From Squalus acanthias (lineage: Eukaryota), in NCBI GenBank assembly GCA_030390025.1, contig CM059431.1:110362001-110426000 (forward strand): DNA of 64,000 bases, written 5' to 3'. The notes under the pieces are model-generated. The model was given only the letters and a program-made list of their open reading frames with translations, was not told where the DNA came from and did not search any database. Shown in pieces: positions 24,322-64,000 of this stretch. Each line of letters begins with the position of its first letter. Within the stretch, counting starts at the first letter, position 1. The position numbers were made by a program, and so were the translations under genes.

Positions 24322-24873
24322 ACAAAAAGAAAATACTGCAGATGCTGGAAATCTGAAATAAAAACAGAAAATGCTGGAGATACTCAGCAGGTCAGGCAGC
24401 ATCTGTGAAGAGAGAAACAGAGTTAACGTTTCAGGTCGATGACCTTTCGTCAGAACTGGAAAAAAGCAGGAAATGGAACAGATTTTAAAGCAAGTTTAGG
24501 GACTGGGAAATGGGGGGGGGGGGATGAAAGAACAAAAGGGAAGGTCTGTGATAGGATAAAAGGCAGGAGAATTAAAGAGACATTAAGAGATATTCAAGGC
24601 AAAAGGAGATGGTAATGGGACAGGTTAAGAAATAAAGGATGGCTCTAGATGAAGTGTGAATTGCGCTGGCAGAATGAAAGACAGCTGCCATGTGGGAGAG
24701 AAGAACAAAAGGCACAAACAAAAAGTGTGGATAAAAAATATATATATGATAGGGGCCGAGGTTATGGTCTGAAATTGTTGAACTCTATGTTGAGTCCAGA
24801 GGGCTGTAGAGTGCCTAATCGAAAGATGAGGTGCTGTTCCTCGACCTTACGCTGAGCTTCCGTGGAACAATGC
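24322..24873 (-). mobile_element. Penelope-like 3' fragment on the reverse strand with hammerhead core (24427-24453), inserted in a DeuSINE remnant
   Basis: Reverse complement of the 8460-9000 family; SINE pieces at ~24259-24321 and ~24940-25050. Confidence 0.8.
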
Positions 24874-25727: not shown

Positions 25728-26317
25728 CAGCCAGAATCACCGAATGAACTGATGTCTCTTTTTTTGCCCATATGTAATGTTTGGGCAGCATTCAACTGAG
25801 GTCCTAACTAGCCATGAGTCCGCAACAATAACCCACTGCTATTTTGGCACTCATTGTCAGTCTCATTCAGAATGGCCACACGGATGGCTGGTGTGGAAAT
25901 AGAAAGCACACACTGTGTTCTCTAGCCTTGCGGTACATTATCCAACAATCTGAGTAATTGTTACAAGGTACACAGTGTATCTTTCTTCACATCACGATCC
26001 CACATTGGGCCAAGGTTTTCCGGTTCTTCCCTCATCAGTCTGCGATTTGTTTCCGCCGTTCATTTTAATGGAGGGGAATATCACGGTCTGGTGAGCCCGG
26101 TAGCTGAAAACCCTGATCTAGATGTCAGAACTTTGGTTATTTAAACAAACATGCCAATGGTAGAGGTACGTTACTGGAGTCTGCTGGATCTGATGTTTAT
26201 ATAACAAGAAAACTCAATAACACACGAGTGACAAAGACAACCTAAGTGTGTTTTGACTTTGGGTTCACAAACTAGATCTATGTCACACTCAATAGAAACT
26301 TGCTAAGGATTATATAT

Positions 26318-26757
26318 TCCTCCAGCCCTACAACCCTCCGAGATCTCTGTAATCTCCTCCAGCCCTACAACCCTCCGAGATCTCTGTAATCTCCTCCAGC
26401 CCTACAACCCTCCGAGATCTCTGTAATATCCTCCAGCCCTACAACCCTCCGAGATCTCTGTAATCTCCTCCAGCCCTACAACCCTCCGAGATCTCTGTAA
26501 TCTCCTCCAGCCCTACAACCCTCCGAGATCTCTGTAATCTCCTCCAGCCCTACAACCCTCCGAGATCTCTGTAATCTCCTCCAGCCCTACAACCCTCCGA
26601 TATCTCTGTAATCTCCTCCAGCCCTACAACCCTCCGAGATCTCTGTAATCTCCTCCAGCCCTACAACCCTCCGAGATCTCTGTAATCTCCTCCAGCCCTA
26701 CAACCCTCCGATATCTCTGTAATCTCCTCCAGCCCTACAACCCTCCGAGATCTCTGC
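26318..26757 (+). repeat. 37-bp minisatellite, ~12 copies, derived from L2 sequence
   Basis: Unit CTCCTCCAGCCCTACAACCCTCCGAGATCTCTGTAAT repeated in tandem. Confidence 0.95.
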
Positions 26758-27057
26758 GCTCCTCCAATTCTTGCCTCTTGTGCATCCCTGATTTTCATCG
26801 CTCCACCATTGGAGGCTGTGCCTTCAGCTGCCTAGTGCTAACCTCTAGAATTCCCTCCCTAAATCTCTCCACCTCTCTACCTCTCTCTCTCTTCCTTTAA
26901 AACGCTCCTTATAACCTACCTCTTTGACCATGCTTTAGGTCGCCTGTCCTAATATCTCCTTATGTGTCTCGGTGTCAAATTTTGTTTGATAACGCTCCTG
27001 TGAAGCGCCTTGGGATGTTTTACTACATTAAGGACGCTATATAAATGCAAATGGTTG
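26758..27057 (+). mobile_element. L2 LINE 3' end continuing from the minisatellite
   Basis: Same family as 7409-7770. Confidence 0.8.
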
Positions 27058-43313: not shown

Positions 43314-43665
43314 GGCCCCGGTATTTACAGAGAGGCGGGGAGGGTGCGAGGGAGGCCGAAAACAGCCGAAGAACCTTTAGGCCAGGTCACAGAGGTCCTG
43401 CCGAACTTAACGGCAGGATTTTATTGTCATTATTTGGATCCGTTTCCCACCCAGCCGCCGATCAAATTGACAGCCTGGCCGACGGCCTGGGGGGGATCAA
43501 CCAGCAGCAGGCGGCCACAGCCGGGGACGGTCCCCGACAATCGGGAGGAGAGAAGGTCGGCCATCATAGCGGGGGTAAGGGGGAAGAAGGGGGAGAAGGT
43601 TGGCGATAGGGATTAGGGGAGCGAGAGGCAGCGATTGGCAAGGGTGTAGGCCGAAGGCTTCCTTG
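43314..43665. mobile_element. Left half of a GC-rich MITE split by the provirus
   Basis: GGCCCCGGTATTTAC terminus; the sequence resumes at 56490 after the CTTG TSD. Confidence 0.5.
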
Positions 43666-45336
43666 TGTAAGGGTTTTGACCCGTGTGGCTCTGTGCTCAG
43701 CCTGGGTGCTAGTGCGAGGTTAGGCCTTGTTGCCTGTTCTGGTCTCCAGCCAGTCTGGGAGCACTAGACACCTGTGAGTGGTTCGACCCACTCGCCCTTA
43801 CGGTTCTGACACTGGACTTAGATGCGAGAGCAATAATGGAGAGAAAACTCAGGTAGACCCGGTTGAATGGTACGAAATGGAAAATCTTTATTGCATATTA
43901 TTCAAGATTACGAAATACATGTCATAAGCACAGATTAATGACAGTACAATCTTACACGCAGTTATGTAACTAATTTCAGGGAAACGAGGAACGAACGACA
44001 CATCGTAAATGGGGGCACACATTACAGTTATCCTTAAAACTTAAACCCTCCCCTATCAATACCTGCTCTAAACTAGATTTGTAGGATCGAGACTCATGCT
44101 CACCACTCGTGATAACTCGGAGAATTCCGAAAACTCTGCTCGGATGTTTTTACCGCAGCACCTGATCACCCACGTGTTGATCAGGGGTCTCTGTACCCCA
44201 CTTGTTTACTCGTTTCTGCTCCGGCTAGCAGGCTGGACTGTCTGCTGTCATGAAGATCTGTGTTGTTCTCGGAGTTCCGACACTACTCAAAAAAAAAAAG
44301 TCTTCCTGTGCCCTCGCCCTGATGCGATAAAACTCGAAGAATAGTCTTCCGATGCCAGTTCTGTAAAGCTCAAAAGATAGTCTTCCTGGGCAAGGAAATT
44401 GTCTATTTGACCTACAGGCGCGGTCGGGGCTTACTGACCGTGGCGAAACGTATGGTCGTCTTCTTCTCTTCTCATCTCATCTCATCTCATCTCGGGCCTT
44501 CGGTTCCAACACCGTTTACCGACTTCTCGGGATGGTGTGCCCATTTCAAGGCTTCACAGCCCAGTTCCACACAGATCTTCGCGGCAAGCCACGAGGCTGA
44601 TTCTGGCGGATCAGAAAGTTCAACAGTCTTTCAGCAAGTCAAACAGCAAGAGCTGCAAGAGGCAGAGGCACGATGCAAGCGGCAAGAGGCAGGAGAATAA
44701 GAGAAAGATGGACGGTTGTAGTTTACAGTTATAGTGCTGAAACTCTTCTTTTCCCGCCCAACCTTAATGTCTTTTCTTTTGTTAGGGTTTTGGCGCTCAA
44801 ATTTCTTGTATAGGGTGATCTCCGTTTTAATGGGTTTCGGGGATACTCGTAACTGTCTGAGTACCTGTTAATATTTTTCCCATTGTGTAACCGGTCAGTA
44901 TTCTCCCTGGAGGGGTTTTGGGGCTTCCAAATGTTTTCTGTAACTACCCGCAAACGGCTCTCTCATCGTAGAGTCGTGGGGATTTTGCATATTAATGTCT
45001 TTGGATGGGTTCTCGATCGCTTGGTACAATAGCCCTTATTCGCACCTGGGAGACCGATTTCAGTATTTATGTGTATACTGCAAACCCATAATGTCTCGTG
45101 TATTATCTCAAATGTGCTGAGTCTTGATCGATCTCGCACAAATGTTTATTGGAACGCCATCTTGTCTGCTTATCGAAAAGTCTAGAATGTTCTGCCACGA
45201 GGCGTGGCGGCCATTTTACAGGCTGCTTGTGTCCACTTTGAAAACCTGACAGCATTCTGCTGAAATAAAGCTGTTTGAACGAAACTATGTGTTTTCTCCT
45301 TATTTATAAAATCGCGATTATATTGCGAATTCTACA
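43666..45336 (-). repeat. 3' LTR (1671 bp)
   Basis: Direct repeat of 54819-56489; TG...CA ends; AATAAA on the minus strand at 43887-43892. Confidence 0.97.
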
Positions 45337-45347
45337 GTCCCTCCTGT
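45337..45347 (-). promoter_or_regulatory. Polypurine tract
   Basis: ACAGGAGGGAC immediately before the 3' LTR on the minus strand. Confidence 0.7.
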
Positions 45348-45783
45348 TGATGCGAATAACTCCGCTTATCGTATCAAAAATATTGTGGTGAACAATATTA
45401 TCTCAATTTCTCCAGATCCAGAAAAATAATCCCCATAACTTAAACTATCTAGGGTCTTTGCGTCGTCCTTATTTCCCAGGAAAATTACATTCTTATAACA
45501 CCGCAGGCATTATTTGCCTTTAAACTTACACCACTTGTTTTCCTTCCAGGCATAACCAGGCCGATGCCTCTCGTATCACCTGTATATTCACATTTTTTTT
45601 TGGGAAAAGAAAAACAAAACAAAACCAAACAATCATATTCAACAAAAACACCATCACCAAAATAATCAAAACCAACTCTTAAACATGTCGAGTTCCAAAC
45701 GTAATTACAGTTTCTGAAAAATCACGATCGATTACAACACTTCCGAGGCGCACGTGGCAAACGGGAATGACGCCATTTTCTGA

Positions 45784-48135
45784 TTACACGGTGCTTTCAT
45801 CGTGCACGCGCACGTTACGTTCTCGCCACTCTCCCGTGTTTTCGTTCTTGGTGAGGCGTTTGCCTCTCTTACAATGTACGACCAATAAGTATACCACAAT
45901 AAACACTTGGCATACAACTAAAATGTGGGAGGCTATTCTAATCCAGGAAGGCACTTCAATGTTGGTGAACAGATTCCACCACGGTGGAATTACTATGTCC
46001 AGAATGTCTGTCCCTATTTCGACAGTTTTCTGCTCTAGTGTGTAAAAATGTTTTTGTGACACCGCGACGGCTTTTAAAAGCTTGGTGAGGTGTTCAGGGA
46101 GAGGGGGAATGAGGTATCCGAAATGCGCGACGAATCGCTGCAGGTCGGTGAAGTTCTCTTTTACGGTGAGATGAACCGTGGATGGTTCAGGGATTGGGAC
46201 AATTCGCTGTTGTGCTACTTGAACTTCCGCCCTGGGTTTGAAACAGAAACTGCTGTCACTCACCGGACACCGGCTACGGTTTCCATGCTGGTAGTGTTGC
46301 GCTGCAGTGGTAACACAATATGTTCCACCCCCGATGTATGCTACCTGCGGAGGCACATGATCTTGTGCCATTGCCTCCATGGTGCAATTCATGGACTTGG
46401 CACCAGCCGTTCTGAACCCGCACTGTGGTGTTAAAAAGGCATTCAAGTGCTGGGGACACAGTATTATGTGTGCTCCCCTGCCACGACAACCAGAGAGATC
46501 TGTACCTGTCATCGTTTGCTCCCAGCGGATGACGTAAGGTGGAACCGCTGCATAGCGAATGTGGGCTCCCCCCTGAATGACACCAATGTTCTCTACCCGA
46601 TACACCGGGGCGGGCTTTGCTGTGTCGCCCAAAACCGGCATACGTAACACTATACCCATAATGGTATGATTTGACCGTCCGCAGTCCACGGGGACTGGGT
46701 ATGCTTCTGAAGCTAGCCTGAGCTGGCACGGGCTTAATGCGTTCTGAAAAGGGTGGAGCGCCCGCAGGTGTTTGTTACTTATCCAGGACGGGACCAAACC
46801 TTGTTTTAAATCCTCCAAATTACTGCGGCCCTCGCCCAGTAACCACGCCCCGTAAAGCACGCACACCTCATTCTGCGCAGCTTGATCGGATGCATTCCGA
46901 TCTTCCCTAATCAGGGCATTTACCGTTCTCGCGTGTTTCTCTAGTTCAGCTATTATTTCTTTTAAATGTAGAGTCATGGCTTGGTCCTCGTGTAACCCAG
47001 ACCCAACCACCTTATTTTCATCTGTGAGAATGTCCTTTAATTGCGTTTTTAAGCCATTAATCTGGGTCTGCAGCTCCACGCTGTCTAGAGCGTTGACCAC
47101 AGATGTACCTGTGTTGAAAGCAGTGAACGCGTCGTTCACAACACCCCTTCTTTGTCTCCCCACCTGATCCAAAACTTCCTGTGGTGCGGTGTACAAACTT
47201 GTTTTATCAATTTCCGCGAAATCGAATTCGTAAAATTGTCTGAACATCTTGGTCAACAGGACCTGATATAACTGCTCCGTCTTTTTGGGGCACCACTCTG
47301 GTAACCGCACCTCGGTGAGATTTAAAATCACCGAGGCCACCGCGTAATGTACCCCCTGAAATAGTATCTGGTCTGTGGGGACCAGTACCAAACCATTCCC
47401 GGGTCCCTTACTGGTTTTAGGGCACCCTTCTTCCTTAGCTAGAACCACCGGAATCGTGGGCGGGGCTTTGCGTGGGCGCGTAATGAGTTCAGTGGCATTT
47501 ACCGGGATCGGGGAGAATGGGGCTCCGCACTCCCTGGTGCTCGCATCCCACCTCATCCCCTGTCCGTTATCCTGCCATTGATTAATGAAAAATATGGAGA
47601 TGCCTTTGGGGCAAACGTACTTTGACCCCCACATACATACATAAATTCCCTCATCCGGTTCCCACCATTTGTCCCAACAGACTCTCACTTGTCCGTTTGT
47701 CCCCGTAATTGTCCGATGGGTATTATTACCCAGTCGTTCCCACTTGACCGAAGAGTTCCTCATGTTTTTGCTCAGCTTTCGTAGCCACCACCATCGGCTC
47801 AATGGGACATTCCCACTACAAGTCAAACAAATCCGTTTGCCGACGGTGACGCTGATCCTGGGTGCGATGATCCTTACTTTGGGGCACAGTAAAGAAGTCT
47901 CTTGGTAGGCAAACCCCGATGTGCTGGAATACTCCGTTGAGTTCGTTCCCAGCCATCCTGGCCACCTTCCCTTGTGGAAATAGGTGGTGGTCTCCTCAGC
48001 CTCCCGTCTTCCGGTCCCATCCACCGCGATGGGGGCCGTGTCCCCGGAGCATCCAAACACCACGACATCCTTGGTGCGGCCTCGATAGGCCAATCCACAT
48101 CCGATTGCCGCGAGCAATACTAGAATTCGTTCCAT
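45784..48135 (-). CDS. env: Envelope glycoprotein, class I fusion (F-like), 783 aa
   Basis: Signal peptide MERILVLLAAIGCGLA; N-glycosylation sequons; furin site RQRR (aa 327-330) followed by a fusion-peptide-like segment and heptad repeat; Cys-rich region; C-terminal TM ILVVCQVFIVVYLLVVHC; short basic tail. Confidence 0.9.
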   Translation of the reverse strand: MERILVLLAAIGCGLAYRGRTKDVVVFGCSGDTAPIAVDGTGRREAEETTTYFHKGRWPGWLGTNSTEYSSTSGFAYQETSLLCPKVRIIAPRISVTVGKRICLTCSGNVPLSRWWWLRKLSKNMRNSSVKWERLGNNTHRTITGTNGQVRVCWDKWWEPDEGIYVCMWGSKYVCPKGISIFFINQWQDNGQGMRWDASTRECGAPFSPIPVNATELITRPRKAPPTIPVVLAKEEGCPKTSKGPGNGLVLVPTDQILFQGVHYAVASVILNLTEVRLPEWCPKKTEQLYQVLLTKMFRQFYEFDFAEIDKTSLYTAPQEVLDQVGRQRRGVVNDAFTAFNTGTSVVNALDSVELQTQINGLKTQLKDILTDENKVVGSGLHEDQAMTLHLKEIIAELEKHARTVNALIREDRNASDQAAQNEVCVLYGAWLLGEGRSNLEDLKQGLVPSWISNKHLRALHPFQNALSPCQLRLASEAYPVPVDCGRSNHTIMGIVLRMPVLGDTAKPAPVYRVENIGVIQGGAHIRYAAVPPYVIRWEQTMTGTDLSGCRGRGAHIILCPQHLNAFLTPQCGFRTAGAKSMNCTMEAMAQDHVPPQVAYIGGGTYCVTTAAQHYQHGNRSRCPVSDSSFCFKPRAEVQVAQQRIVPIPEPSTVHLTVKENFTDLQRFVAHFGYLIPPLPEHLTKLLKAVAVSQKHFYTLEQKTVEIGTDILDIVIPPWWNLFTNIEVPSWIRIASHILVVCQVFIVVYLLVVHCKRGKRLTKNENTGEWRERNVRVHDESTV

Positions 48136-48148
48136 CCTTCCTTGGTTC

Positions 48149-48170
48149 CTGTGATCAGATAGAATGAGGT
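48149..48170 (-). promoter_or_regulatory. Candidate env splice acceptor
   Basis: ACCTCATTCTATCTGATCACAG|G with 13 nt before the env ATG. Confidence 0.55.
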
Positions 48171-48254
48171 AGCCAGCCTCGCAAGAGTCTCTGATTTTGT
48201 GAAGGGTGAGCGGGTCCCCTGACCTCGCCTCACGTAAGAAGACATGTGCGCTGG

Positions 48255-48450
48255 ATAAACTTTAACTAATCCTATCTCTAAAACTCCCATCATTTTACAT
48301 CCTTAAACAAAATTAAACTACCGACTTAAACCGATTTAAAACTATAACCTTATAACCTTATCTAAAACTATAAACTTATTCTTAACCTTAAACTATAAAC
48401 TTATTCTTAACCTTGAACTATAAACTTAGAAACTTATCCTAAACTTATTA
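48255..48450. repeat. AT-rich imperfect tandem repeats in the pol-env spacer
   Basis: Recurring AACTATAAACTTATTCTTAACCTT units (~25 bp). Confidence 0.75.
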
Positions 48451-48484
48451 CTGTACAGCGCCGCCCATTCCCAGGGCGGCCCAT

Positions 48485-51400
48485 TTAAATTCTGAAAAGG
48501 CTGCCACGAGCCTTTCCCGACGGTGGGAGGGCATTGACCCCTCCCTTTGATCTGCCGCAGCCTGTTGCTGCTGCGCTGGGACTGGGCTCTCCCTGGGCTG
48601 CCTTAACCTTGAGCCTACGCCTTGGGATACTCTGGGGACTTGACCATACCTTCCTGGGCTGGGGTATCCGACCTGACCTACGGAGAGTTACCGGGGGCAG
48701 GAACTCCAGGACCGACGGACCGGGTTCCGAGACTTCCACCGTGGCGACCTGTGGTCCCGCCACAGTCGCTGGCTCCGCCTCCCCTGGCTCCGCCTCCCCT
48801 GGCTCCGCCTCCCTGAACTCGGGATCTGCAGCTTGTGGCACTGCCCTACTCGGCCCAGTAGGCGGCCCTTCACTCGCAGTCCCTACCTCCCTCGAGGGCA
48901 GGACGTTCAAGGCGGGCGGCTCGGGCTCTGAGGCTTCCTTCGCCACGCCCTGTGGTCCCATCACAGCGGCTGGCTCCGCCTCCCCTGGCTCCTCCCCCCT
49001 GCGTTCGGGACCTGCAGCTTCGGCTTCCACCCTGTGTGGATCTCTATCTGCAGCCCCTGTCCCCCCTATACCTGAATCGGGGGCGACCCTTTCGTCCTCC
49101 GATTCCAGCTCTTCCTCGTCACTATCTTCACTATCCTCACTTTCACTATCTTCGTCGAGCTCCTTGAACTCACCCTCATCTGACTCCCAACCCCACAAAA
49201 ATGTCTCATAATTTTCCAGGATGTCCCCTTCCCTGATGCAAGCTGCTTTGCCTGCCTGTGTGCCCTGTGGCCCTACCTGGGGCTGCGAGTCCCCACTCGC
49301 AGGTTTTGCCCCTGTGGTTGGCCCTTGTGTACCTGGCTTGTACAGTTTGCACTGGTTTACGTGGAACCACTTAGTGCGCCGAGGTACCTTTACGGCGTAT
49401 ACCATGGGACTCGCCTTATCTACAATGTTGTAGGGTCCCATATACAGTGGTTCCAGACTCCCTACTCTGGCGTAGTTTCTGACCATGACCTGGTCTCCTA
49501 CTTCCCACTCCCGCGTTTTGCGGGGTTCCAGCAACAGGCGATTGCCCTGATGCTGCCTTCCCATGTTCCCAGCCGCCTGCTCATAAACCTGTTTCAGGCG
49601 CTCCAAGAGGGTCTGGACGAACTTGTCCCTGCTTATCTCTTGGAGCTGACCCTCAGTGAGCACCGGCGCTAGCACATGGGTGGGGGTTCGCATGATCCTC
49701 CTAGTCATCACCTCGTGCGGGGAATACCCCGTACTTTTCGACTGACTGGCCCGGACCCCCATGAGGACAAAAGGCAGAACCTCCGCCCATTTTTGGGGCG
49801 AGTTCATAGTCTCTTTCCTCAATTTCTCCTTCAGGGTCCGGTTCATGCGTTCAACAATCCCGGATGACTGGGGATTGTGCGCTACGTGCCATTTCCCTTC
49901 AATGCCCAAAAGCATGAGGGTGTTCTGCATCACCTGGCCGGTGAAATGACTCCCTTGGTCTGACTCCACAAAACGGGGGAGTCCCCACCGTGAGAACACT
50001 TCCCGGACCAAGATTTTTGCAGTACCCAGTGCCGTAGCTGTTCTACAGGGGAAGGCTTCCACCCATTTGGAAAACACATCCACCAAGACGAGGCAGTATT
50101 TATAGCCTCCCTGGGTGGTGGGCAGGGGCCCTATATAGTCGATCTGTATCGACTGCCATGGTCCCTCTACCCTCCTGACGTGCCCCATGGGCACTTTCCT
50201 TTTCTGGGGGTCTGGGTTGTTTGCAGCACACACGAGACAGCTTGCACAGAACTCGCGGACCTGTTCCCTGAGCCCCGGCCACCATCCCGCTTGCTCTACC
50301 CGTTGCCAGGTAACCTCGGGCCCGGGGTGCCCTGCCCCTGGTCCCTCGTGAGCCAACTGGAGGAATTCCCTCCTGTGCTGCTGCGGCACAACCCACTGCT
50401 CCTCGCGGAACAGCATGCCTTCCTTAACTGAGAGGGTTGCCGTACTGTACGGACCCTCTACCTGCTTCCCCTCAGCAAGGGTTTTGAGGACTGCTTTTAG
50501 GGCGGGATCCTGGTTCTGGACGGTCTTAAGGTCTCGGGGCAATGCTACCCTGGTGTTCCCGGGATTCCCGTCCCTGCCTTGGATCGCTGCCATGGGTCTG
50601 GGCCCATAGGGGTCCCAGAAAATGCCGTTGCGGGCACCTTCCCTGGCTAGCGCATCCGCCTGCTGGTTGCCTTCCCCAAGGGGCTCTGTGGAGGAGTGAG
50701 CCTTCACCTTATGGATGAAAATCTCCCCTTCCTCACCTACTGCTGCTAGGATCTTTTCCAGCAAGGGCTTCACCGTTAAAGGTCGCCCGTCCGCGGAGGT
50801 GTATCCACGGCGGGACCAAATGGCCAGGTATTCCGTACACGAATTGCATGTGAACATACTGTCCGAGCAAATCGTGTATGGGGTTGGGAAAATTTCTGGG
50901 TGGGTAACGACGTACACCACTGCAGATAGCTCAGCCTGCTGCGCGCTCATGGTGCTAGGGAGCTTGATCGCCAGGGCAAGGTTTGCCGCAGGGTCATAAA
51001 CTCCACACCCTGTGAGTCGTTCGCCAGCGGACACTGTGCTGGAACCATCAACATAAATCTCGCGCCCAGTGGGATGTATCCCGGCCCGCAAACCTATGTT
51101 GACTTCCCACACCCCTTCCACCGAACACTGGTGGGCTGTACCGGGGTATACCAAATTGGCCGCAAGCCTGGGCTCGCAAAGACCTTTAACTCTAAGATCC
51201 ATCTGGGAAAGAAGAAGGGTCCAGCGCGCAATACGCACGCTGCTTACGGTCCCATCTTTAATCCTCCCATCTAGAAGCATCTTAGTTGGTGTGTGATGGG
51301 TGAGGAGAGTGATGGGAGAGAGCCCTGTGAAGATCGCTGATCTTTTCACAGCCCAATGCGTGGCTAAAAGGCGCCTTTCGCAATTGGAGAAACTTCTCTC

Positions 51401-53008
51401 CACATCCGTTAACACCCTGGACGAATAGACAACCGGCCTCAGCTTGCCGTGGCGCTCTTGGAGCAGCACAGCGCTCAAGCTGTCTCCGCTGGCAGCTACC
51501 TCCAGGAAAAACTCCTTCCCCCCATCTATGGCCCCTAAAGCTGGCGCGGTCTGCAAATCCCTTTTTAACTTCTCGAAGGCTGCTTGGCAGCCCTCGTCCC
51601 AAGACCACTCCACTCCCTTATGGAGGAGTCGGAGCAGCGGCGCCGCTGTGGCCGCATAGTCTTCGATAAAATCCCTGCAGTAACCGGTCAGTCCCAAAAA
51701 GGACCTCACACCCCTTATGGTGTTGGGAATCGGTAACTCTTGCACCGACTCCCTCCTAGCCTTATCTATGGCTCTTTCCCCAGCGCGAATGGTCAGCCCC
51801 AGGAATTTTACTTCCTGCTGACCGATACGTGCTTTCTTAGGGTTCACTTTAAAACCCTTTCTCGCTAGCAGCTCCAATAATTCGGCCAGCAGTGGTCCAT
51901 GCTCCTCCCTTGAATCCGTAAATAGGAGCAAATCATCCACGTACTGCACTATCTGATTGGGCTGACTAAACTCCTTTAAACTTCCTGCCATACACTGATG
52001 GAAAATACTGGGGCTGTTGTGGAAACCCTGTGGCAGACAGTTCCATGTGTACTGTTGTCCTTTGAAAGTAAAGGCAAACTTGTACTGGTCCTCTCGCCGC
52101 AGCGGGATGGACCAAAAACCGTTCGAGATATCCAGCACCGTGAATGTGGTCGCGGACGCTGGGATACTCCCTATTAGGTCAGCGACTGCTGCTACCGTGG
52201 GCGCGCAGGCGGGAATGTTACTGTTAAGGACTCTGTAGTCCACCGTGGCCCTCCACGAATTATCCGGCTTCCTAACCGGCCATAATGGGGAGTTCACGTG
52301 TGTGGCTATCGGCCTCAACACGCCCTGCTGCACCAAGGAGGACATTGCTGTCTCCATATCGGGTTCTGCTTCTTTGGGGAAGTTATACTGCTTTTGGGGC
52401 CGGGTCATGGGGTCCCCATCTACGCTGACCTCAAACCCGGTAACCCTCCCACAATCGTGCTTGTGGGTTGCAAACGCGTGCATATTATCTGACACATACG
52501 TTTGCATGTCCGTTGGGACATCCGCGACCATAAGCCCGAGGTCGTAGCCTCCGGATGGCTTCATGGTACACAGGGCCCCTGTTTCTTCCTCCCCCGGAAT
52601 TACCACTACCTCGCCGTCTCCACCCTTAGCCCCCCAGAGACAGTGATTCCTGAGGTCCACGAGGATCCCGTGCCCTGATAGGAGATCGGACCCGAGGATA
52701 CCTCTCCCACCCCCCTCATGCCATTTCATCAGTATGCACTTCCACGTGATGTGGAGTGTTCCTAAACGAATGGATAGCGGAAGGGAGAACGCGCCAGCCT
52801 GTTCTTTTCCCGTGAACCCCGCTAATGTGAATGGGACCTTGGTAGATAGCGGTGAGTCAAAAGGGCTATCTGTATGAATCACGGTGCAAGAAGCTCCCGT
52901 GTCCAACAAATAACTACCCTTCTGTTGCTCTACCTCCATCTCCACCAGGGGTCGCTTCCACGCATCATAGCTGAGCGGACACAGGTAGACGGGCTGCGCG
53001 GGCTCTAG
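48485..53008 (-). CDS. pol: Pol polyprotein: protease, RT, degenerate RNase H/tether, RNase H, integrase, acidic tail
   Basis: LLDTGAS; VLDISNGFW, LPQGFHNSP, YVDD; EVAAS...YSSR; YVDGS...AEL...SDS...KAH...NQQAD; HHCC, DDE and GPY. The frame is open from the gag stop at 53009. Confidence 0.95.
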   Translation of the reverse strand, partial: LEPAQPVYLCPLSYDAWKRPLVEMEVEQQKGSYLLDTGASCTVIHTDSPFDSPLSTKVPFTLAGFTGKEQAGAFSLPLSIRLGTLHITWKCILMKWHEGGGRGILGSDLLSGHGILVDLRNHCLWGAKGGDGEVVVIPGEEETGALCTMKPSGGYDLGLMVADVPTDMQTYVSDNMHAFATHKHDCGRVTGFEVSVDGDPMTRPQKQYNFPKEAEPDMETAMSSLVQQGVLRPIATHVNSPLWPVRKPDNSWRATVDYRVLNSNIPACAPTVAAVADLIGSIPASATTFTVLDISNGFWSIPLRREDQYKFAFTFKGQQYTWNCLPQGFHNSPSIFHQCMAGSLKEFSQPNQIVQYVDDLLLFTDSREEHGPLLAELLELLARKGFKVNPKKARIGQQEVKFLGLTIRAGERAIDKARRESVQELPIPNTIRGVRSFLGLTGYCRDFIEDYAATAAPLLRLLHKGVEWSWDEGCQAAFEKLKRDLQTAPALGAIDGGKEFFLEVAASGDSLSAVLLQERHGKLRPVVYSSRVLTDVERSFSNCERRLLATHWAVKRSAIFTGLSPITLLTHHTPTKMLLDGRIKDGTVSSVRIARWTLLLSQMDLRVKGLCEPRLAANLVYPGTAHQCSVEGVWEVNIGLRAGIHPTGREIYVDGSSTVSAGERLTGCGVYDPAANLALAIKLPSTMSAQQAELSAVVYVVTHPEIFPTPYTICSDSMFTCNSCTEYLAIWSRRGYTSADGRPLTVKPLLEKILAAVGEEGEIFIHKVKAHSSTEPLGEGNQQADALAREGARNGIFWDPYGPRPMAAIQGRDGNPGNTRVALPRDLKTVQNQDPALKAVLKTLAEGKQVEGPYSTATLSVKEGMLFREEQWVVPQQHRREFLQLAHEGPGAGHPGPEVTWQRVEQAGWWPGLREQVREFCASCLVCAANNPDPQKRKVPMGHVRRVEGPWQSIQIDYIGPLPTTQGGYKYCLVLVDVFSKWVEAFPCRTATALGTAKILVREVFSRWGLPRFVESDQGSHFTGQVMQNTLMLLGIEGKWHVAHNPQSSGIVERMNRTLKEKLRKETMNSPQKWAEVLPFVLMGVRASQSKSTGYSPHEVMTRRIMRTPTHVLAPVLTEGQLQEISRDKFVQTLLERLKQVYEQAAGNMGRQHQGNRLLLEPRKTREWEVGDQVMVRNYARVGSLEPLYMGPYNIVDKASPMVYAVKVPRRTKWFHVNQCKLYKPGTQGPTTGAKPASGDSQPQVGPQGTQAGKAACIREGDILENYETFLWGWESDEGEFKELDEDSESEDSEDSDEEELESEDERVAPDSGIGGTGAADRDPHRVEAEAAGPERRGEEPGEAEPAAVMGPQGVAKEASEPEPPALNVLPSREVGTASEGPPTGPSRAVPQAADPEFREAEPGEAEPGEAEPATVAGPQVATVEVSEPGPSVLEFLPPVTLRRSGRIPQPRKVWSSPQSIPRRRLKVKAAQGEPSPSAAATGCGRSKGGVNALPPSGKARGSLFRI

Positions 53009-54814
53009 TCATTGGGTACTATTAGACGGGGCTGTGGCACCTGCGGGGCTGGTAGCAACCGCCACTTTTCCATGCGCACTCATGAGGTTACGCATGGCTC
53101 CCAACACTGTTTCGATCGCGTCGGGATGGATGGGTGTACTAGCTTCCCTATCAGAGACAGGCGCCTGGGCTCGGGCTGCGGGATTTTTATCCCTGGAATC
53201 CTTCCAAGGGTTCCTGCAGTTCTTGCGCCAGTGCCCTGTCTTCCCACACCCGTAACAAGCATTACTGGCCTGCGGGGCGCGGTTACCCTCCTGATGCCAC
53301 TCCTTTTGAGCCGGGGCTGCGGGTCGTGCCTCATGCACCTTTCCCTTAAGGGGACGTGCTCCCATACTTCTGGTATTACGGTACCCCACCGTGAGTCGAT
53401 TTAGGACCGACTCCTCTGTAGTGGTGGGGTCCGTGGGATCAAACCACGCTTTTGCCTGCTCCCTGACGGCTGGCAAACTGTTGGCTACTATACACCTGAG
53501 CCAATGAGTTAAACCGATGTCTGCCACATCGGCGCGCTCTGGCGCACCTGGGCAGCTACGCTGGTATACTGGCCACAGACTGGCGGCGAAAACCTTCGGG
53601 GGTTCTCCCTCCATCTGCACTGTCTGTCCCAGTCTAACAAACGGACCTTCATCGTCCGCTCCCAATACTTCTAGGACCTCATTTCTTAGTGCCCCATAGG
53701 TCTTAGTTCCCCTCTTGCTCTCGTCTGAGAGACACTGAAGGATCGAACTACCTAATGAGAATAACAGCATCTTTGCTGTTTCCCCATCGTCGCAGCCGTT
53801 AATGGCTGCGGTTTGCTCTATTTCCCTAAAATGTACGGAAGGGTCGTCTGACTCGGCCAGCTTCGGTACGTGACTGATCATAATCCTCAGCTGGTGTGAG
53901 CTGTGAGGCAACACAAGCTGGTTGAGGAGATCCCCTTGTTCCCCACCGTCTCTGTTCGGGCCCCTTTTGATACCCGTGACCGGACACAACGGTCCCGGTT
54001 CCACTTCTACCTCGGCGGGCTCTTTCGTTACTTCTACCACTTTCTCCCTTACCCAGGTTTCCGAATAGCTGGGTGGCGCGGAGGGCGTAGTGGCTAATAC
54101 TTCCTCTGCTTTGTTTGGTGGGGATTTCTGAAATTCCTCATCCACTAGCGGCTGGTGTGCTGACGGACTGATAAGGCACACCATGCCGTGCGCTTTGTTC
54201 ACGGCCCTTTTAAGGTGCTCTATCTCCTTTTGGCAGACGCTGTGATCGGCCCCCTGAAATTTATCCTCGAGGGCCATCTTATATGCCGCCCTAACCCCCG
54301 TTAAGCTCTCTTCCTGGGCTTTTATTTGGGCAGCTTGGCGGGCACATCGTTCCTTTAATCTGCCCTCACTTAACTTTGCCTCAGTGACCTGGTACTCGAG
54401 GTAACCTATTTTTGCTTTATGGTGGTTGGTGACTACCTGGCGTTCTTGATGCAACGCATTTAAAGTCGTGATGAGCTGCTGCCTCCCCGCGACCTTCTCG
54501 TCCATTTCCACCTCTAAACGCCTGATCCGAGCTGCTTGCGCTGTAATGACCTGGTCCGAAATTTGGACTTCTCTTTTATAGCACATCAGCCAGACCGCTT
54601 TCTCCACTGCCTTTTTATGTTCTTTGCTATCTGTCCACCTCTCGGCTGCCTCTAGTGGACACTTATCCACCAGCAGGTCACTTATCCATTTCTTAGTCAA
54701 ATTTACTTTTCCGAACACATAATCTGCTATTCTGTCTTCCATGACATTTCGCCCAATCATACCAAAGTCTAACACATTACCCTCTCGCTGCCAGTGTCCT
54801 GCCGCGGTCGCCAT
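53009..54814 (-). CDS. gag: Gag polyprotein, 601 aa
   Basis: Position after the 5' LTR; N-terminal coiled coil; PSAPPSY late domain; capsid-like region; CYGCGKTGHWRKNC CCHC zinc knuckle. Confidence 0.92.
   Translation of the reverse strand: MATAAGHWQREGNVLDFGMIGRNVMEDRIADYVFGKVNLTKKWISDLLVDKCPLEAAERWTDSKEHKKAVEKAVWLMCYKREVQISDQVITAQAARIRRLEVEMDEKVAGRQQLITTLNALHQERQVVTNHHKAKIGYLEYQVTEAKLSEGRLKERCARQAAQIKAQEESLTGVRAAYKMALEDKFQGADHSVCQKEIEHLKRAVNKAHGMVCLISPSAHQPLVDEEFQKSPPNKAEEVLATTPSAPPSYSETWVREKVVEVTKEPAEVEVEPGPLCPVTGIKRGPNRDGGEQGDLLNQLVLPHSSHQLRIMISHVPKLAESDDPSVHFREIEQTAAINGCDDGETAKMLLFSLGSSILQCLSDESKRGTKTYGALRNEVLEVLGADDEGPFVRLGQTVQMEGEPPKVFAASLWPVYQRSCPGAPERADVADIGLTHWLRCIVANSLPAVREQAKAWFDPTDPTTTEESVLNRLTVGYRNTRSMGARPLKGKVHEARPAAPAQKEWHQEGNRAPQASNACYGCGKTGHWRKNCRNPWKDSRDKNPAARAQAPVSDREASTPIHPDAIETVLGAMRNLMSAHGKVAVATSPAGATAPSNSTQ
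54796..54813 (-). promoter_or_regulatory. Primer binding site, tRNA-Ser-like (tentative)
   Basis: TGGCGACCGCGGCAGGAC, 5 nt after the 5' LTR; TGGCG....CGGCAGGA resembles the complement of vertebrate tRNA-Ser 3' ends, with mismatches. Confidence 0.65.
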
Positions 54815-54818
54815 TTTC

Positions 54819-56489
54819 TGTAAGGGTTTTGACCCGTGTGGCTCTGTGCTCAGCCTGGGTGCTAGTGCGAGGTTAGGCCTTGTTGCCTGTTCTGGTCTCC
54901 AGCCAGTCTGGGAGCACTAGACACCTGTGAGTGGTTCGACCCACTCGCCCTTACGGTTCTGACACTGGACTTAGATGCGAGAGCAATAATGGAGAGAAAA
55001 CTCAGGTAGACCCGGTTGAATGGTACGAAATGGAAAATCTTTATTGCATATTATTCAAGATTACGAAATACATGTCATAAGCACAGATTAATGACAGTAC
55101 AATCTTACACGCAGTTATGTAACTAATTTCAGGGAAACGAGGAACGAACGACACATCGTAAATGGGGGCACACATTACAGTTATCCTTAAAACTTAAACC
55201 CTCCCCTATCAATACCTGCTCTAAACTAGATTTGTAGGATCGAGACTCATGCTCACCACTCGTGATAACTCGGAGAATTCCGAAAACTCTGCTCGGATGT
55301 TTTTACCGCAGCACCTGATCACCCACATGTTGATCAGGGGTCTCTGTACCCCACTTGTTTACTCGTTTCTGCTCCGGCTAGCAGGCTGGACTGTCTGCTG
55401 TCATGAAGATCTGTGTTGTTCTCGGAGTTCCGACACTACTCAAAAAAAAAAAGTCTTCCTGTGCCCTCGCCCTGATGCGATAAAACTCGAAGAATAGTCT
55501 TCCGATGCCAGTTCTGTAAAGCTCAAAAGATAGTCTTCCTGGGCAAGGAAATTGTCTATTTGACCTACAGGCGCGGTCGGGGCTTACTGACCGTGGCGAA
55601 ACGTATGGTCGTCTTCTTCTCTTCTCATCTCATCTCATCTCATCTCGGGCCTTCGGTTCCAACACCGTTTACCGACTTCTCGGGATGGTGTGCCCATTTC
55701 AAGGCTTCACAGCCCAGTTCCACACAGATCTTCGCGGCAAGCCACGAGGCTGATTCTGGCGGATCAGAAAGTTCAACAGTCTTTCAGCAAGTCAAACAGC
55801 AAGAGCTGCAAGAGGCAGAGGCACGATGCAAGCGGCAAGAGGCAGGAGAATAAGAGAAAGATGGACGGTTGTAGTTTACAGTTATAGTGCTGAAACTCTT
55901 CTTTTCCCGCCCAACCTTAATGTCTTTTCTTTTGTTAGGGTTTTGGCGCTCAAATTTCTTGTATAGGGTGATCTCCGTTTTAATGGGTTTCGGGGATACT
56001 CGTAACTGTCTGAGTACCTGTTAATATTTTTCCCATTGTGTAACCGGTCAGTATTCTCCCTGGAGGGGTTTTGGGGCTTCCAAATGTTTTCTGTAACTAC
56101 CCGCAAACGGCTCTCTCATCGTAGAGTCGTGGGGATTTTGCATATTAATGTCTTTGGATGGGTTCTCGATCGCTTGGTACAATAGCCCTTATTCGCACCT
56201 GGGAGACCGATTTCAGTATTTATGTGTATACTGCAAACCCATAATGTCTCGTGTATTATCTCAAATGTGCTGAGTCTTGATCGATCTCGCACAAATGTTT
56301 ATTGGAACGCCATCTTGTCTGCTTATCGAAAAGTCTAGAATGTTCTGCCACGAGGCGTGGCGGCCATTTTACAGGCTGCTTGTGTCCACTTTGAAAACCT
56401 GACAGCATTCTGCTGAAATAAAGCTGTTTGAACGAAACTATGTGTTTTCTTCTTATTTATAAAATCGCGATTATATTGTGAATTCTACA
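54819..56489 (-). repeat. 5' LTR (1671 bp)
   Basis: Direct repeat of 43666-45336; only three substitutions noticed by eye. Confidence 0.97.
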
Positions 56490-56873
56490 CTTGAGAGGCC
56501 GGTGGAGCACCCCTGCTCCTCCTGGTCCACAAGGTGTGTTGGATGGGACACTTGCCTTGTGGCACCAGCAGCTCCCATCTCCCTTTCACTGCCGGGTTTC
56601 CCGAACCCTGGGAAACCGGTGCAGCAGCAGTGAATTTGAAATCAGGCTCCCAATTATACTGTCGGAGCCCAATTTAAATATGTTGATGAAGTGCGCCGCC
56701 TCTCCATGGCAGGACACTCGGATGCCACAAAACCCACCGGCGTAATAACGGCAATGTGTGTGCGCGCGGCAGGATAGGGTCGCGTTTTGCGCATTTGACG
56801 GTTTAACCTCCCCCGCCCCCCTCCCCCCCCCGTCATCCTCTCCCTCCCATCATGGAGGGGCTAATATTGAGGC
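56490..56873. mobile_element. Right half of the MITE split by the provirus
   Basis: GGAGCACCCCTGCTCCTCCTGG motif shared with other MITEs in the window (e.g. ~12520); ends GCTAATATTGAGGC. Confidence 0.5.
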
Positions 56874-58551: not shown

Positions 58552-60576
58552 ATGGAGAGGCCCAGGGAACGAGCTCAGCACTTCAACGACCGGGCCTTGG
58601 TGGCTCTGGTTGGCGCAGTGGAGTGGCGAAGGGCCGTACTCTACCCACAGAGTGGCAGGAGGCCATTGCCCCGTGACTATAGAAGAGTGTGGAGGGAGGT
58701 GGCTCAGCACGTCTCCTCCAGGAGCCTGGTACCCAGGACCCACACCCAATGTCGGAAGAAGTTCAACGACCTCACTCGGGTGGTCAGGGTGAGTGGCTGC
58801 TTTTCAATACCTCTCCATCCCTCCATCTCAACTTCACTCTGTGCCCAGAGGGTTTAAAAACCCCAAATTCCCAACACTCATCCAAGACCAATGGCCATCT
58901 CATAAAACACACACGCACATTCCACACCTTGCATACATTAAGGGCTATTCAACTATGGGAGGCACATCAGGCAAGCACATGGCTGCATACATTAAGGGCT
59001 ATTCAACTATGGAAGGCACATCAGGCAAGCATATGGCTGCATACATTAAGGGCTATTCAACTATGGGAGGCACATCAGGCAAGCATATGGCTGCATACAT
59101 TAAGGGCTATTTAACAATGGGAGGCACATCAGGCAAGCATATGGCTGCATACATTAAGGGCTATTTAACAATGGGAGGCACATCAGGCAAGCATATGGCT
59201 GCATACATTAAGGGCTATTTAACAATGGGAGTCACATCAGGCAAGCACATGGCTGCACATTTATTCAGACGCCGTCCTTTTTCTTGCAGGCCAAGCTCTC
59301 TCACACCAGGCACCAGCAGCAACGCACGGGCGGAGGACCGGCTGAGCTGCAGACCCTCAGCGATTTGGAGACGCGCGTCCACAGGATCGTTGCCAGCCAG
59401 GTGATAGGTACCGTGGCCGCTGGAGAGATCGACCCCCTTGGGGACAGCAATGGTAAGTTCATCAGCTTTCTCTCCTCTCTCATTCCACTTGTCCCTCACA
59501 ACACCAGCCTTTTACACTTTCAATCCAACTTACTAAATCGCTCCAGTCCTTGCTCTCTTACTGCCCCCCTGTCCTGACGCTAAAGCCACTCTTGTACCTC
59601 CCTGCTTTCAGATAGTGAACCACCAGCTGAGCAGCCTGTCCCTCAGCCAACCAGTGGGAGCGACGCCGCAGGCGAGGAGGAAGAGGAAGCCGGAGCCTCA
59701 GCGCCTGCGTCTCCCGAGGGAGCCCATGTCCACAATGGGACCACGCCTTCCCTGGAGGGGAGCAGGGGGGAAGGGTCTGATGAGGACGAAGCTCCGGGAC
59801 CCAGCGGGCTGCAGCAACGCCATGGGAGTAGGGAAGCTCGGGGGCCATCTCCCCGGAGGGCGAGTAGGCAAGCGAGTCCTGCTGCACTGGACACAGAGGA
59901 GGAGCGCGTCATCGCGGAAATGAATAGCCAGGCCTTGAACATGCATACTCAGCTCATGGGTGCAATGGCAAGGGTGCCCGAAAGCATTGATGGAATAGCA
60001 AGGAGTGTGGAGCACTCCGCTGCAGCACAGGCCAACGCAACGCAATGGCTTAGTGCTGCAAATCAGTCACTGGCTGCTGCCATCCAATCTCAGACTGCTC
60101 TCATGCAGTCTCAGATTGAGGTCACGCATGCACTGAATGCTACCATCGTCGCTGGTTCGGCCACATTGCCCCGGGGCTGTCACGGTGCTGCAGCAGGCCA
60201 GCAATCTGTGCTCGAGCAGATTGCTCCGAATGCTGAGGTACTGCCTCGTGGGAGTGCCAGTGTGTCGGTCAAGCAGGGAGGTGCTGTCCTCTCTCAGGAT
60301 GATAGCACTCCTGCTGCCACCACTGTCACTTCCCCATTACACTTGCCACCGCCTGCAACACAGCCAGCCCAGACAGCTGCCGCCCATGCAGAGTTGGTGC
60401 AGTCTGCAGCTGGTCGAGGCCGTCCTTCAAGGGCATCTGTAGTATCAGCATCTGACATTCAGCAGCCTTCCACCAGCCTTGCTGCAGCCACTGGGGCCCC
60501 ATTACGGAGGAGCAGTAGGGTGGGAAGGGGGGAAGTGCGCAAGGGATGGAGATCACCCTCGAAGGGCAAACAGTAG
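58552..60576 (+). CDS. Harbinger Myb/SANT-like DNA-binding protein; 3 exons (58552-58788, 59290-59452, 59612-60576), ~454 aa
   Basis: MERPRERAQHF...VWREVAQHVSS...RTHTQCRKKFNDL; donors GTGAGT and GTAAGT; acceptors TTGCAG and TTTCAG; exons join in frame (1365 nt). Confidence 0.8.
58931..59256 (+). repeat. 54-bp minisatellite x6 in intron 1 of the Myb/SANT gene
   Basis: GCATACATTAAGGGCTATT(C/T)AAC(T/A)ATGGGAGGCACATCAGGCAAGCA(C/T)ATGGCT tandem units. Confidence 0.95.
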
Positions 60577-60881
60577 GAGGTCTAAATAAATGGTGGGAAT
60601 GTTCGTAGTAAAGGTCGAGGTTTGGCTGATTACATTTGTTTACTGTTTTGGTGTTTTTCTCCAGCTTGTGAGAACCAGTTCTGTAAATTCATGATTTGTT
60701 TTGTTTGTTTCTAATTGTTTGTCCTGAATAAATGACGCACACAGAGTTTGTTAAATAAAAAAGTTGTTGTATTCAAAATTTACATGTTTGGCCTTTGGAA
60801 TCATTGCAGCTTTGGCCGGCTATAGGGGTTGCTTTCCATGATGTCGTTCTCCATGCCAGAAGCCATCTTCTGAGTAGGGGC

Positions 60882-62035
60882 CTAGAAGTGGCTTGTTATC
60901 AGCCGTTGACGGACGGCCCTTGCAGTGGCAACATTGTGGGCCTCCCTCCCACCTGGGCGCTGCTGCTGATCATCCTCCTCATCCGCCTCCTCCTCCTCCT
61001 CTTCCTCCTCTTCCTCAGGTGGTGCACCAATCCCTGGTGGCATTGGCTGTGTCCTCAGGATTGCCAGGTTGTGAAGCATGCAGCACACAACTATGAAGAG
61101 GGAGATTCGCTCAGGCGAGTACTGCAGGGCTCCTCCTGAGTGGTCCAGACAGCGGAACCGTTGCTTGAGCACGCCGATCGTCTGCTCAACGATGTTCCTG
61201 GTGGCGATATGGCTCTCGTTGTACCGCAGCTCAGCAGGGGTGTTGGGGTTACAGAGCAGTGTCATCAGCCAGGTGCAGAGTGGATAACCCTTGTCCCCGA
61301 GGAGCCAACCACTTGGCTGATGCGGTGCCTGGAAAAGCTCTGGCACACCAGTCTGGCGCACTGATGAAAGCATCGTGGCTGCTGCCAGGATAGCGGGCAT
61401 TGACAGCGAGTATCAGCTGAGTGTGGTCACAGACCAACTGGACATTTAAGGAGTGGTAACCCTTGCAGTTTCGGAAAACCTCTGCATTTTCATGCGGTGC
61501 CCGCAATGCCACATGCGTGCAGTCAATGGCGCCCTGCACCATGGGGAAGCCCGCTATCCTCGCAAAGCCACATGCGCGCTCATGCTGTTTGGCCTGTGTC
61601 ATCGGGAAAGAGATGTACTGGCGTCTCCTTTTATAGAGGGCATTTGTCACCTCCCGGATACAGCAATGGACCGCAAACTGGGAGATATTGGCGATGTCCC
61701 CAGTAGCTGCTTGAAAGGAGCCGCTGGCATAAAAATTCTGAGCCACTGTCACCTTCACAGACGTCCTGGTCCTCAGTTGAGGCTGCAGATCTGGTTGCAG
61801 CAGGTGGCAGAGCTCAGTGACCACCTCCTTGCTGAAGCGCAGCCTACACAAACACTGCTCCTCAGACAAATGAATGTAGGAGAATTGCTCCCGGAATACC
61901 CTGGGAGGGTAAGGTCTCCTGGGCAGAGGCCTGTTGGCCCTCCTCCCTCTGGCCATGTTTGCCACTCTCTCTGCGTCTCTGATGCCTCCAATTCTGCAGG
62001 TGCAGGACGACGTCCCGAATCAGTGCAGCCCCCAT
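60882..62035 (-). pseudogene. Harbinger (HARBI1-like) DDE transposase, frameshifted
   Basis: [54 protein letters not shown] and CCMLHN; frame switch at ~61362 and probably another near 61970. Confidence 0.88.
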
Positions 62036-62501
62036 AGTCTCTTCTAAATCGATGTAAGGAAGGTCAAATCAAAATGAACCTGCAAAGTGCTGATCAGTAC
62101 CCAAAACTCCTTCACACAGCGTTAAATCTCTCCAGAAGTCTCTCTCTCTCTTTCAGAATCTTTCTCTCTCTCTCAGAATGCGTGGCGCAAAAATGTCGCC
62201 GACAAAAAAAGGCAGGAAGCGGCCGCCTTTAAATAGCGCTCCCCCAGCCCCTTCCCGACTGCAAAACGTTCCCCTCTACCTGTCGTTGCTAGCGGCAGGC
62301 GGAAAGGCAGGGGGCGCCACTCAATATCCGGTCTGGGGCACTACCGGGGCATTGCACACTCGACTGACGTCACAATCTGCGGGCGCAGGAGATCATGGCG
62401 GTAGTGTTTAGCGCCGCCGAAAAATGTCTGGTGAATTTCGCGAGCGGCGCGAACATCGCCACGCCCAGGCGCTAGTTGCTTTGCGCCCTGCTAGTGCCCT
62501 C

Positions 62502-64000
62502 ATCAATAAAAAAAAGGAAGTTTGGGATGGGAATAGGGCCATTAAGGGATAGACAGGCAGCGATAGAGAGATGGCAGAAATATTGAATAATTATTTTGCT
62601 TCAGTATTTACCAGGGAGATAGAACAGGTTGACATGACATTGGATCATGAGATTAGTAATGAGGTAAGTGCATTTAAAATAAAAAGAGGGGATATATTAA
62701 ATAAACTAATCAAACTCAAAGAGGATAAAACCCCTGTTCCGGATGGATTGCATCCACGCATTTTAAAATAATCCAGGGAAGAGATAGCAAAGGCATTACT
62801 ACACATATTTAATAATTCATTAGAAAGAGGACTGGTGGATAGCTAACATAATACAGTACCTATATTTAAGAAGGGGGATAGAACATGACCAGGGAACTAT
62901 AGACCAGTCAGCTTAACAGCTTAACATCGGTGGTAGGAAAAATAATGGAATCCCTACTAAAGAAGAAAATAGAAGAACATCTAGAAACCAAAAACATAGT
63001 AATGACTAGTCAGCATGGATTTCAAAAGGGAAAGTCTTGCTTGACCAACCTCATTGAATTTTTTGAAGAGGTATCAGAGCGAGTAGACAATGGTAATGCA
63101 GTAGATGTAATTTATCTGGATTTTCAATAAGGTACCCCATGATAGACTGATGAACAAGGTCAGAGAACGCGGAGTCAGGGGACAAGTAGCAGAATGGATA
63201 GCTAGCTGGCTTCAAGGCAGAAAGCAGGGAGATGGGGTAAAAGGTAGCTATTCACAGTGGCAGAAGGTGGGTAGTGGTGTTCCACAAGGATCAGTGCTGG
63301 GACCACTGCTGTTCACAATTTATATTAACAATTTAAACTTTGGAATCAAAAACACAATTTCTAAATTTGTGGATGACACCAAATTGAGGGGGATAGTCAA
63401 TACTGAGGAGGACTGCAACAAATTACAGGAGGACATTCATAAACTTGCAGAATGGGCATATAATTGGCAAATGAAGTTCAACACAGATAAATGTGAGGTA
63501 TTACATTTTGGTAGGATGAATAGGGAGGTCACTTATCACTTGGAGGGTGTGTGTCTGGGTGGGGTAGAGGAGCAAATGGATCTCGGAGTACAAATACACA
63601 AATCACTAAAAGTTGTGACACAGGTAAGCACGGCCATAAAAAAAGCAAACCAAGCACTAGGGTTTATTTCTAGAGGTATAGAATTGAAAAGTAGGGAAGT
63701 TATGCTAAACCTGTGTCGAACCTTGGTTAGACCACACTTGGAGTATTGTGTACAGTTCTGGTCGCCATATTATAAAAAGGATATAGAGGCACTGGAGAGG
63801 GTACAGAGAAGATTTACAAGGATGATACCAGAAATGCGAGGGTATACATATCAGGAAAGCTGAGGGTGACCTATTAGAGGTCTTTAAAATTATGAAAGGT
63901 TTTGATAGAGTAGATACAGAGAGAATGTTTCCACTTGTGGGGAAGAGCATAACGAGAGGCCATCAATATAAGACAGTCACCAAGAAATCCAATAGGGAAT
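62502..64000 (+). mobile_element. CR1 LINE ORF2 (degraded), runs off the window end
   Basis: [21 protein letters not shown] and RPHLEYCVQFWSP; same family as 5085-7190. Confidence 0.92.

Follow-up and report, generated by a model that had tools for sequence, protein, structure and literature searches.

Background

Experimental proof of stop codon readthrough in retroviruses is confined to the gammaretroviruses, and according to a review (PMC13517186) readthrough is unverified in the epsilonretroviruses and the signals of epsilon-like and unclassified fish retroviruses are unknown. An in-frame UGA at the gag-pol junction is described in SSSV (UGAAGA), ZFERV (UGACGA) and RMEV (UGAAGU), three viruses regarded as distantly related to epsilonretroviruses (PMC13517186), and an in-frame UGA also lies between gag and pol of XtERV-S (PMC8278194). 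The present work concerns a provirus of the shark Squalus acanthias in which gag and pol share one frame, with a single UGA between them that is followed by CUAG. The provirus is 12.8 kb in length and is located on the minus strand of the window, i.e. the whole stretch of 64,000 nucleotides (nt) that was analyzed (assembly GCA_030390025.1, contig CM059431.1, positions 110,362,001 to 110,426,000). All positions given below are those of the window.

Sindbis and chikungunya viruses use UGACUA as their type II readthrough motif, and need a structure downstream of it only conditionally (PMC13517186). UGA_CUAG is found in 23 human genes with a readthrough of about 1.5% to 17% (PMC9841425). This bears out the initial annotation of the locus, which named UGA-CUAG as a strong motif in vertebrate genes. 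Of the two genes it gave as examples, AQP4 occurs in the available part of PMC9841425 only in a reference title and OPRK1 is absent there. The initial annotation also assigned readthrough of UAG to gamma- and epsilonretroviruses. This stands for Moloney murine leukemia virus (MoMLV) as well as for walleye dermal sarcoma virus (WDSV), but UGA has already been reported in SSSV, ZFERV, RMEV and XtERV-S. Opal readthrough in fish and amphibian retroviruses has already been presumed in print and is not new here. What is unusual about the junction is that CUAG follows the stop, rather than that the stop is opal; the novelty lies in this type II context, in a long-range stem that may be present and in the parallel with lokiretroviruses. 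Neither UGA-CUAG in a retrovirus nor readthrough in lokiretroviruses was described in any paper found by a literature search that covered few subscription papers.

The gag-pol junction

At the end of gag the minus strand reads ACC CAA TGA CTA GAG CCC, as first read (feature 52946..53020), where the TGA is at 53011–53009 and the CTAG at 53008–53005. The same frame stays open past the stop into LLDTGAS of the protease; the peptide is identical to that in the initial annotation and the catalytic Asp is pol codon 36. The frame that begins at the gag ATG (54814) and runs to the pol stop (48485) comprises 2110 codons, and the single internal stop is codon 602. The Gag-Pol fusion would be 2109 residues long if this stop is read. 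The type II hexamer (Beier-Grimm: UGACUA or UGACGG) is present at the in-frame stop as UGACUA. The chance of a CTAG behind a given stop is 0.2–0.4% from composition, and TGA is followed by CTAG at 2 of the 162 TGA trinucleotides on the minus strand of the element, the junction one included. Pol is in frame 0 relative to gag and there is no slippery heptamer of the type XXXYYYZ in 53400–52900, thus a frameshift is neither required nor signaled.

The opal readthrough proposed in the initial annotation is very probably the best explanation of this arrangement, i.e. Pol would be made as a Gag-Pol fusion by readthrough of the conserved UGA-CUAG. This reading is the best supported because the position of the stop is conserved, the codons ahead of the first pol ATG are under constraint at the protein level and a frameshift is unneeded. 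Most ribosomes would terminate at the UGA and release Gag, and a few percent would insert an amino acid and go on into pol. By analogy, the amino acid put in at UGA would be Trp, Cys or Arg. The CUAG context would weaken termination and a stem-loop of about 210 nt, beginning 12–16 nt past the start of the stop codon, may raise the rate. The stem-loop is the weakest part of this mechanism and is predicted.

Conservation of the stop codon

Three Gag homologs were found. Two are full-length, P0171 from skate (57%) and P0172 (47%), and their C-termini are at the same aligned Gln as the Gag of this element. The third, P0173, is a piece of 402 amino acids (aa) that falls short of the Gag end. Among the Gag and Env homologs, named ones come only from a skate, Rhinoraja longicauda, and a sawshark, Pristiophorus japonicus.

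Variants were surveyed in region 52935–53075 with contigs of four public runs from three organisms (n = 235, 24, 24 and 5); the data are contigs and the RNA status of the runs is a guess. There are 16 variant rows in the four runs, none of which lies within 53004–53012, and no sense variant of the stop is found. Each of the four runs has contigs whose match covers the pol side and ends just behind 53011–53012, and a separate contig comparison shows the same break behind the stop in three of the four runs. A match that ends at this point suggests that diverged relatives with different gag tails share the stop context. Since the Gag homologs end at the same Gln and TGACTAG has no variant in the four runs, the TGA is a conserved end of gag and not a lesion.

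Coding constraint beyond the stop

Past the stop, all four variant rows are synonymous, as compared with 2 of the 12 rows ahead of the stop (Fisher p = 0.008, where the rows are related alleles and thus non-independent events). Pol has its first ATG at codon 24, 12 residues ahead of the catalytic Asp. An RP motif is located ahead of this ATG, at pol codons 19–20, and RP is found at a similar distance ahead of the Asp in L113, L005, P0004, P0009 and P0013; the remaining aligned rows are without it or begin downstream of where it would be. A Pol begun at its own ATG would therefore miss a conserved start of the protease. Translation of pol is likely to enter from gag, because the codons between the stop and the ATG encode this conserved start and vary only synonymously (four of four rows).

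Four frog gene models of this lineage that are named NYNRIN-like or gypsy-integrase-like (P0002, P0003, P0005 and P0008) begin three residues before the protease Asp. Such a late start would be expected if an upstream stop parts pol from gag.

Predicted RNA structure downstream

An extended stem-loop is predicted downstream of the UGA (Table 1). Its basal helices, +16–20/+213–217 and +27–32/+198–203, are kept in seven of seven folding windows, with one boundary moving by 1 bp in one window. A helix comparable to that of the junction is found at 1 of 62 background positions. Folding is strong in 200-nt windows, with z of -4.3 to -4.9 and -3.75 in a rerun. In 43600–56600 the Rfam scan has no match at or above a family's gathering score, and this applies to SECIS too.

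Points against readthrough and alternative routes to Pol

Several points weigh against the proposed readthrough. The invariance of the seven bases is weak if taken alone; by hand arithmetic it has a chance of about 8%, given 15 variable sites in the 53-base span to which they belong. Contigs also lose rare variants, and differences close to contig ends go unlisted. As regards structure, the initial annotation had proposed a check of folding in the ~100 nt past the stop. Windows of 50–120 nt fold no better than shuffles, and short downstream hairpins are rejected. The element folds well throughout and the 200-nt window at the junction ranks only 3rd of 31. The criterion for a long-range helix was fixed after the junction fold had been seen. 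Two variable sites, +9 and +12, are in the outermost predicted pairs. In addition, one contig from a run guessed to be RNA matches on the RT (reverse transcriptase) side and also from 52977 on, and what lies between is of unlike or unknown sequence, so that the 3′ arm of the stem is without visible conservation in that relative. The predicted stem is considered only a lead, given the two variable sites in its outermost pairs. Finally, an AG at 52972–52971 is preceded by 15 pyrimidines in 20 positions and is located ahead of the RP motif, and is thus a candidate splice acceptor.

This AG bears on an alternative in which pol is translated from a spliced mRNA as in foamy viruses, with a donor upstream, an acceptor just inside pol and the UGA as a plain gag stop. 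Two foamy-like traits of the element are in its favor, the long LTRs (long terminal repeats) and the sole match of the Env profile among Protein Data Bank (PDB) sequences, which is the gp130 envelope glycoprotein chain 8rm1_D (E = 0.0012); gp130 is taken to be a foamy virus protein by its naming among the Env structure matches. Foamy viruses, however, start pol separately and in another frame (PMC8278194), whereas there is one frame here. Codons 2, 3 and 7, which are upstream of the AG, vary only synonymously, and diverged relatives match 53012–52977 with a match that ends before the AG. No splice joint is listed, and among the matches listed there is no loose end at the AG (15 rows, one run guessed to be RNA); a donor outside of the analyzed stretch would appear only as such a loose end. 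Splicing is therefore improbable.

Slightly less probable again is termination followed by reinitiation or internal initiation, either at the ATG of codon 24 or at a near-cognate codon, which would give a separate Pol. There is an in-frame ATG 24 codons past the stop, and one published lokiretrovirus sequence, Lro, has its pol annotated from an ATG two codons past the stop. A start at codon 24, however, loses the conserved protease start that contains RP, and reinitiation leaves the constraint on codons 1–7 and the CUAG context unexplained. A free Pol would also need its own route into the particle, as is the case in orthoretroviruses.

The TGA could also be a nonsense mutation, limited to this copy, in a once-fused gag-pol frame. 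Fused frames are present in deep-branching relatives, and at least 10 entries in the lokiretrovirus supplement are labelled ‘gag-pol gene’. This reading has a minimal probability and is largely refuted, since two homologs, 57% and 47% identical, share the end of Gag, the four runs show no sense variant and the element is otherwise intact. Decoding of the UGA as selenocysteine, to which the codon and the vertebrate host would lend themselves, is just as improbable, as no SECIS reaches the gathering score in the Rfam scan and the CUAG context already accounts for leakiness. Readthrough of the UGA thus appears to be the explanation that fits the junction best.

The provirus and its parts

Table 1. 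Features of the provirus in the order of transcription.
Feature	Position	Strand	Remarks
Target-site duplication CAAG, upstream copy	56490..56493	minus	sequence
5′ LTR, 1671 bp, TG...CA	54819..56489	minus	3 differences vs 3′ LTR (3/1671 sites)
Primer-binding-site (PBS)-like stretch	54796..54813	minus	sequence; starts TGG, 5 nt past LTR, overlaps first gag ATG
gag, 601 aa from first ATG	53012..54814	minus	one CCHC zinc knuckle; homologs P0171, P0172
In-frame TGA + CTAG	53005..53011	minus	type II readthrough context; A at -1; no variant row 53004–53012
Predicted extended stem-loop	52790..53000	minus	+12 to +222 from U of UGA; prediction only
pol, gag frame, 1507 codons	48485..53008	minus	protease, RT (LPQG, YVDD), tether, RNase H, integrase, C-terminal extension
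env, 783 aa, open	45784..48135	minus	signal-peptide-like start, RQRR cleavage-like site
Polypurine-tract-like stretch adjoining 3′ LTR	45337..45348	minus	sequence
3′ LTR, 1671 bp	43666..45336	minus	sequence
Target-site duplication CAAG, downstream copy	43662..43665	minus	sequence

The provirus is a young and intact insertion, as its LTRs are near-identical and its frames are open. Every feature tested for membership in the Retroviridae, as an endogenous provirus, was found. Pfam shows a dual RNase H (tether and RNase H), with PF17919/PF17917 at 470–602 and PF00075 at 650–792.

The first gag ATG is 4 nt past the LTR and overlaps the TGG of the PBS-like stretch, and no leader separates LTR and gag; the three Gag homologs start at the aligned Met as well. 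Pol extends about 280 residues beyond the integrase (about 48485–49330, minus strand) as an acidic, proline-rich tail, the DNA of which contains an internal 80-bp repeat (48721–48801 vs 48922–49001, 81%).

Residues of about 221–756 in the Env structural model (pLDDT 74) resemble class I F-type fusion proteins. The best PDB matches of the model are the paramyxovirus and pneumovirus F proteins (E 3e-11, TM about 0.4). By this model, Env appears similar to the Mononegavirales F glycoprotein, which is a criterion for lokiretroviruses. Epsilon and foamy Env match the model as well, thus an F-like Env is not diagnostic of that group. Pfam names no family for Env, and PF00523 shows no sequence match. 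There may be an Ig-like domain at Env residues ~80–170, where Pfam Ig_3 (E = 0.33) and a junction adhesion molecule (E = 0.21) are weak matches. Env homologs are found in skate (76%) and sawshark (59%), and the ESM Atlas has one unnamed cluster (0.84). A model of Env from its single sequence had a pLDDT of 33 and was unusable.

Lineage of the element

In two quickly built trees, one of 60 rows and one of 26, the RT falls with the retroviruses and apart from Ty3/gypsy, with an SH-aLRT support of 98 (no bootstrap; P0020 and P0067 were omitted for short coverage). It is outside of the epsilon/gamma-like clade that is starred and forms a polytomous group with Pols of frog and coelacanth; these trees carry no labelled ERV-L, ERV-S, foamy or class II rows. 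Among viral RTs, the snakehead-virus-like L113 matches best (45%). On the basis of RT, the working label given to the element is class III/snakehead-virus-like retrovirus.

A lokiretrovirus was first suspected because the Pol matches are named NYNRIN-like by their sources and because of the F-like Env model. This identity was rejected. The approximately unbiased (AU) test rejects a clade of the window with P0001, L004 and P0019 (p = 0.008), where only two rows are Loki-like and L004 is so labelled by resemblance to published sequences. The RT motif is LPQG here vs CPFG in lokiretroviruses.

The first viral scan found no relative, and the metagenome and genome scans found no close member of the lineage among the best 80 of 521 confirmed matches and the 29 of 29 matches, respectively. 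In 12 of the 112 loci surveyed an in-frame stop lies upstream of and close to a protease-like motif, and TGA-CTA is present only in L004. Two loci, L089 and L096, are retrovirus-like gag-pol-env contigs within a bacterial metagenome-assembled genome labelled Brevinema and are probably contamination by host DNA.

Other sequences in the window

Broken frames at 59584–62037 (minus strand), next to a 54-nt tandem array at 58876–59307, presumably represent a Harbinger-type transposase and its partner gene. An RT fragment at 63111–63863 is taken to be of the LINE type. There is also a 37-nt tandem array at 26207–26867, and ARAGORN calls a tRNA-Leu at 24757–24850 within repeat-rich DNA.

Comparison with known systems

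A young multi-copy provirus that displays the best-studied cellular and alphaviral leaky context is a clean test case for a second kind of retroviral readthrough signal. There is also a practical side, as screens for endogenous retroviruses that drop elements with internal stops, and gene models begun at pol's first Met, can go wrong on elements of this kind.

Among retroviruses with a known or presumed readthrough, MoMLV and WDSV make Gag-Pol through an in-frame stop (readthrough is shown in MoMLV, presumed in WDSV), as the element probably does. MoMLV differs in its UAG and its downstream H-type pseudoknot, and in the RT tree the element is outside of the epsilon/gamma-like clade. SSSV, ZFERV, RMEV and XtERV-S share with the element an in-frame UGA, for which readthrough is presumed by their authors; the hexamers of the first three differ from UGACUA.

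In the named viruses most closely related to the element an in-frame stop is retained at this position, TAG-GGC in L113 and TAG-GAT in L003. L113 is taken here to be the snakehead retrovirus (SnRV), from a length of 10,688 nt and a UAGGGC junction that matches the one in PMC13517186. As in the element, gag and pol of L113 are in one frame with one stop 31–35 residues ahead of the protease Asp, and there is a YVDD RT and a CCHC Gag. Unlike the element, it has UAG-GGC in place of UGA-CUAG, and apart from the zinc knuckle neither its Env nor its Gag is significantly similar in pairwise comparison.

The alphavirus nsP3-nsP4 junction is comparable in that UGA-CUA governs the polymerase and a long-range stem lies close past the stop, which is a prediction in the present case. 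The predicted stem resembles the extended stems of Venezuelan equine encephalitis virus (VEEV) and Sindbis virus (SINV), which are of 126–177 nt (PMC13517186) vs ~210 nt here. Alphaviruses differ from the element in that they are positive-strand RNA viruses, with an activity shown by experiment.

Lokiretroviruses share with the element the gag-pol-env order, a dual RNase H, an F-like Env and the NYNRIN-like annotation of relatives (PMC7947760), and several published sequences as well as locus L004 also have TGA-CTA at the end of gag. In the supplement of PMC7947760 all four listed ‘Gag protein’ entries end with TGA, followed by CTAG in Ofa, Pyo and Sau and by CTAA in Bsp. The gag of Dcl and Lro ends with TGA-CTAA, and one unnamed TGA-CTAG is located ahead of a protease motif, among the matches listed. 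Thus gag terminates in the UGA-CUA(G) context in at least six of the published sequences of lokiretroviruses. The motifs are also found elsewhere in the supplement: 13 of at least 17 TGACTAG matches and 18 of at least 20 TGACTAA matches are not at an in-frame gag-pol junction. L004 is a natural locus and a broken copy, which has an in-frame TGA-CTAA at 2598–2604 and a predicted helix of similar span (+7–15/+215–223). Lokiretroviruses differ from the element in the distance from the stop to the protease Asp, which is 72 residues vs 35 in the element. The describers of the lokiretroviruses annotated gag and pol separately (PMC7947760). Term searches did not find ‘readthrough’, ‘stop codon’ or ‘suppression’ in the main text of that paper, or ‘readthrough’ or ‘stop codon’ in the Odin paper (PMC9040795).

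The context shared by lokiretroviruses and the element may reflect common ancestry or may be a convergence on a strong motif. It raises a question that can be checked, i.e. how the earliest retroviruses set the ratio of Gag to Gag-Pol. A tentative and rather doubtful proposal is that type II readthrough, UGA-CUA(G/A) with a ~210-nt stem, was the ancestral Gag-Pol route of deep-branching retroviruses. It would then be shared by lokiretroviruses and a separate lineage of cartilaginous fish with an F-like Env, and would predate the UAG and pseudoknot of the gammaretroviruses.

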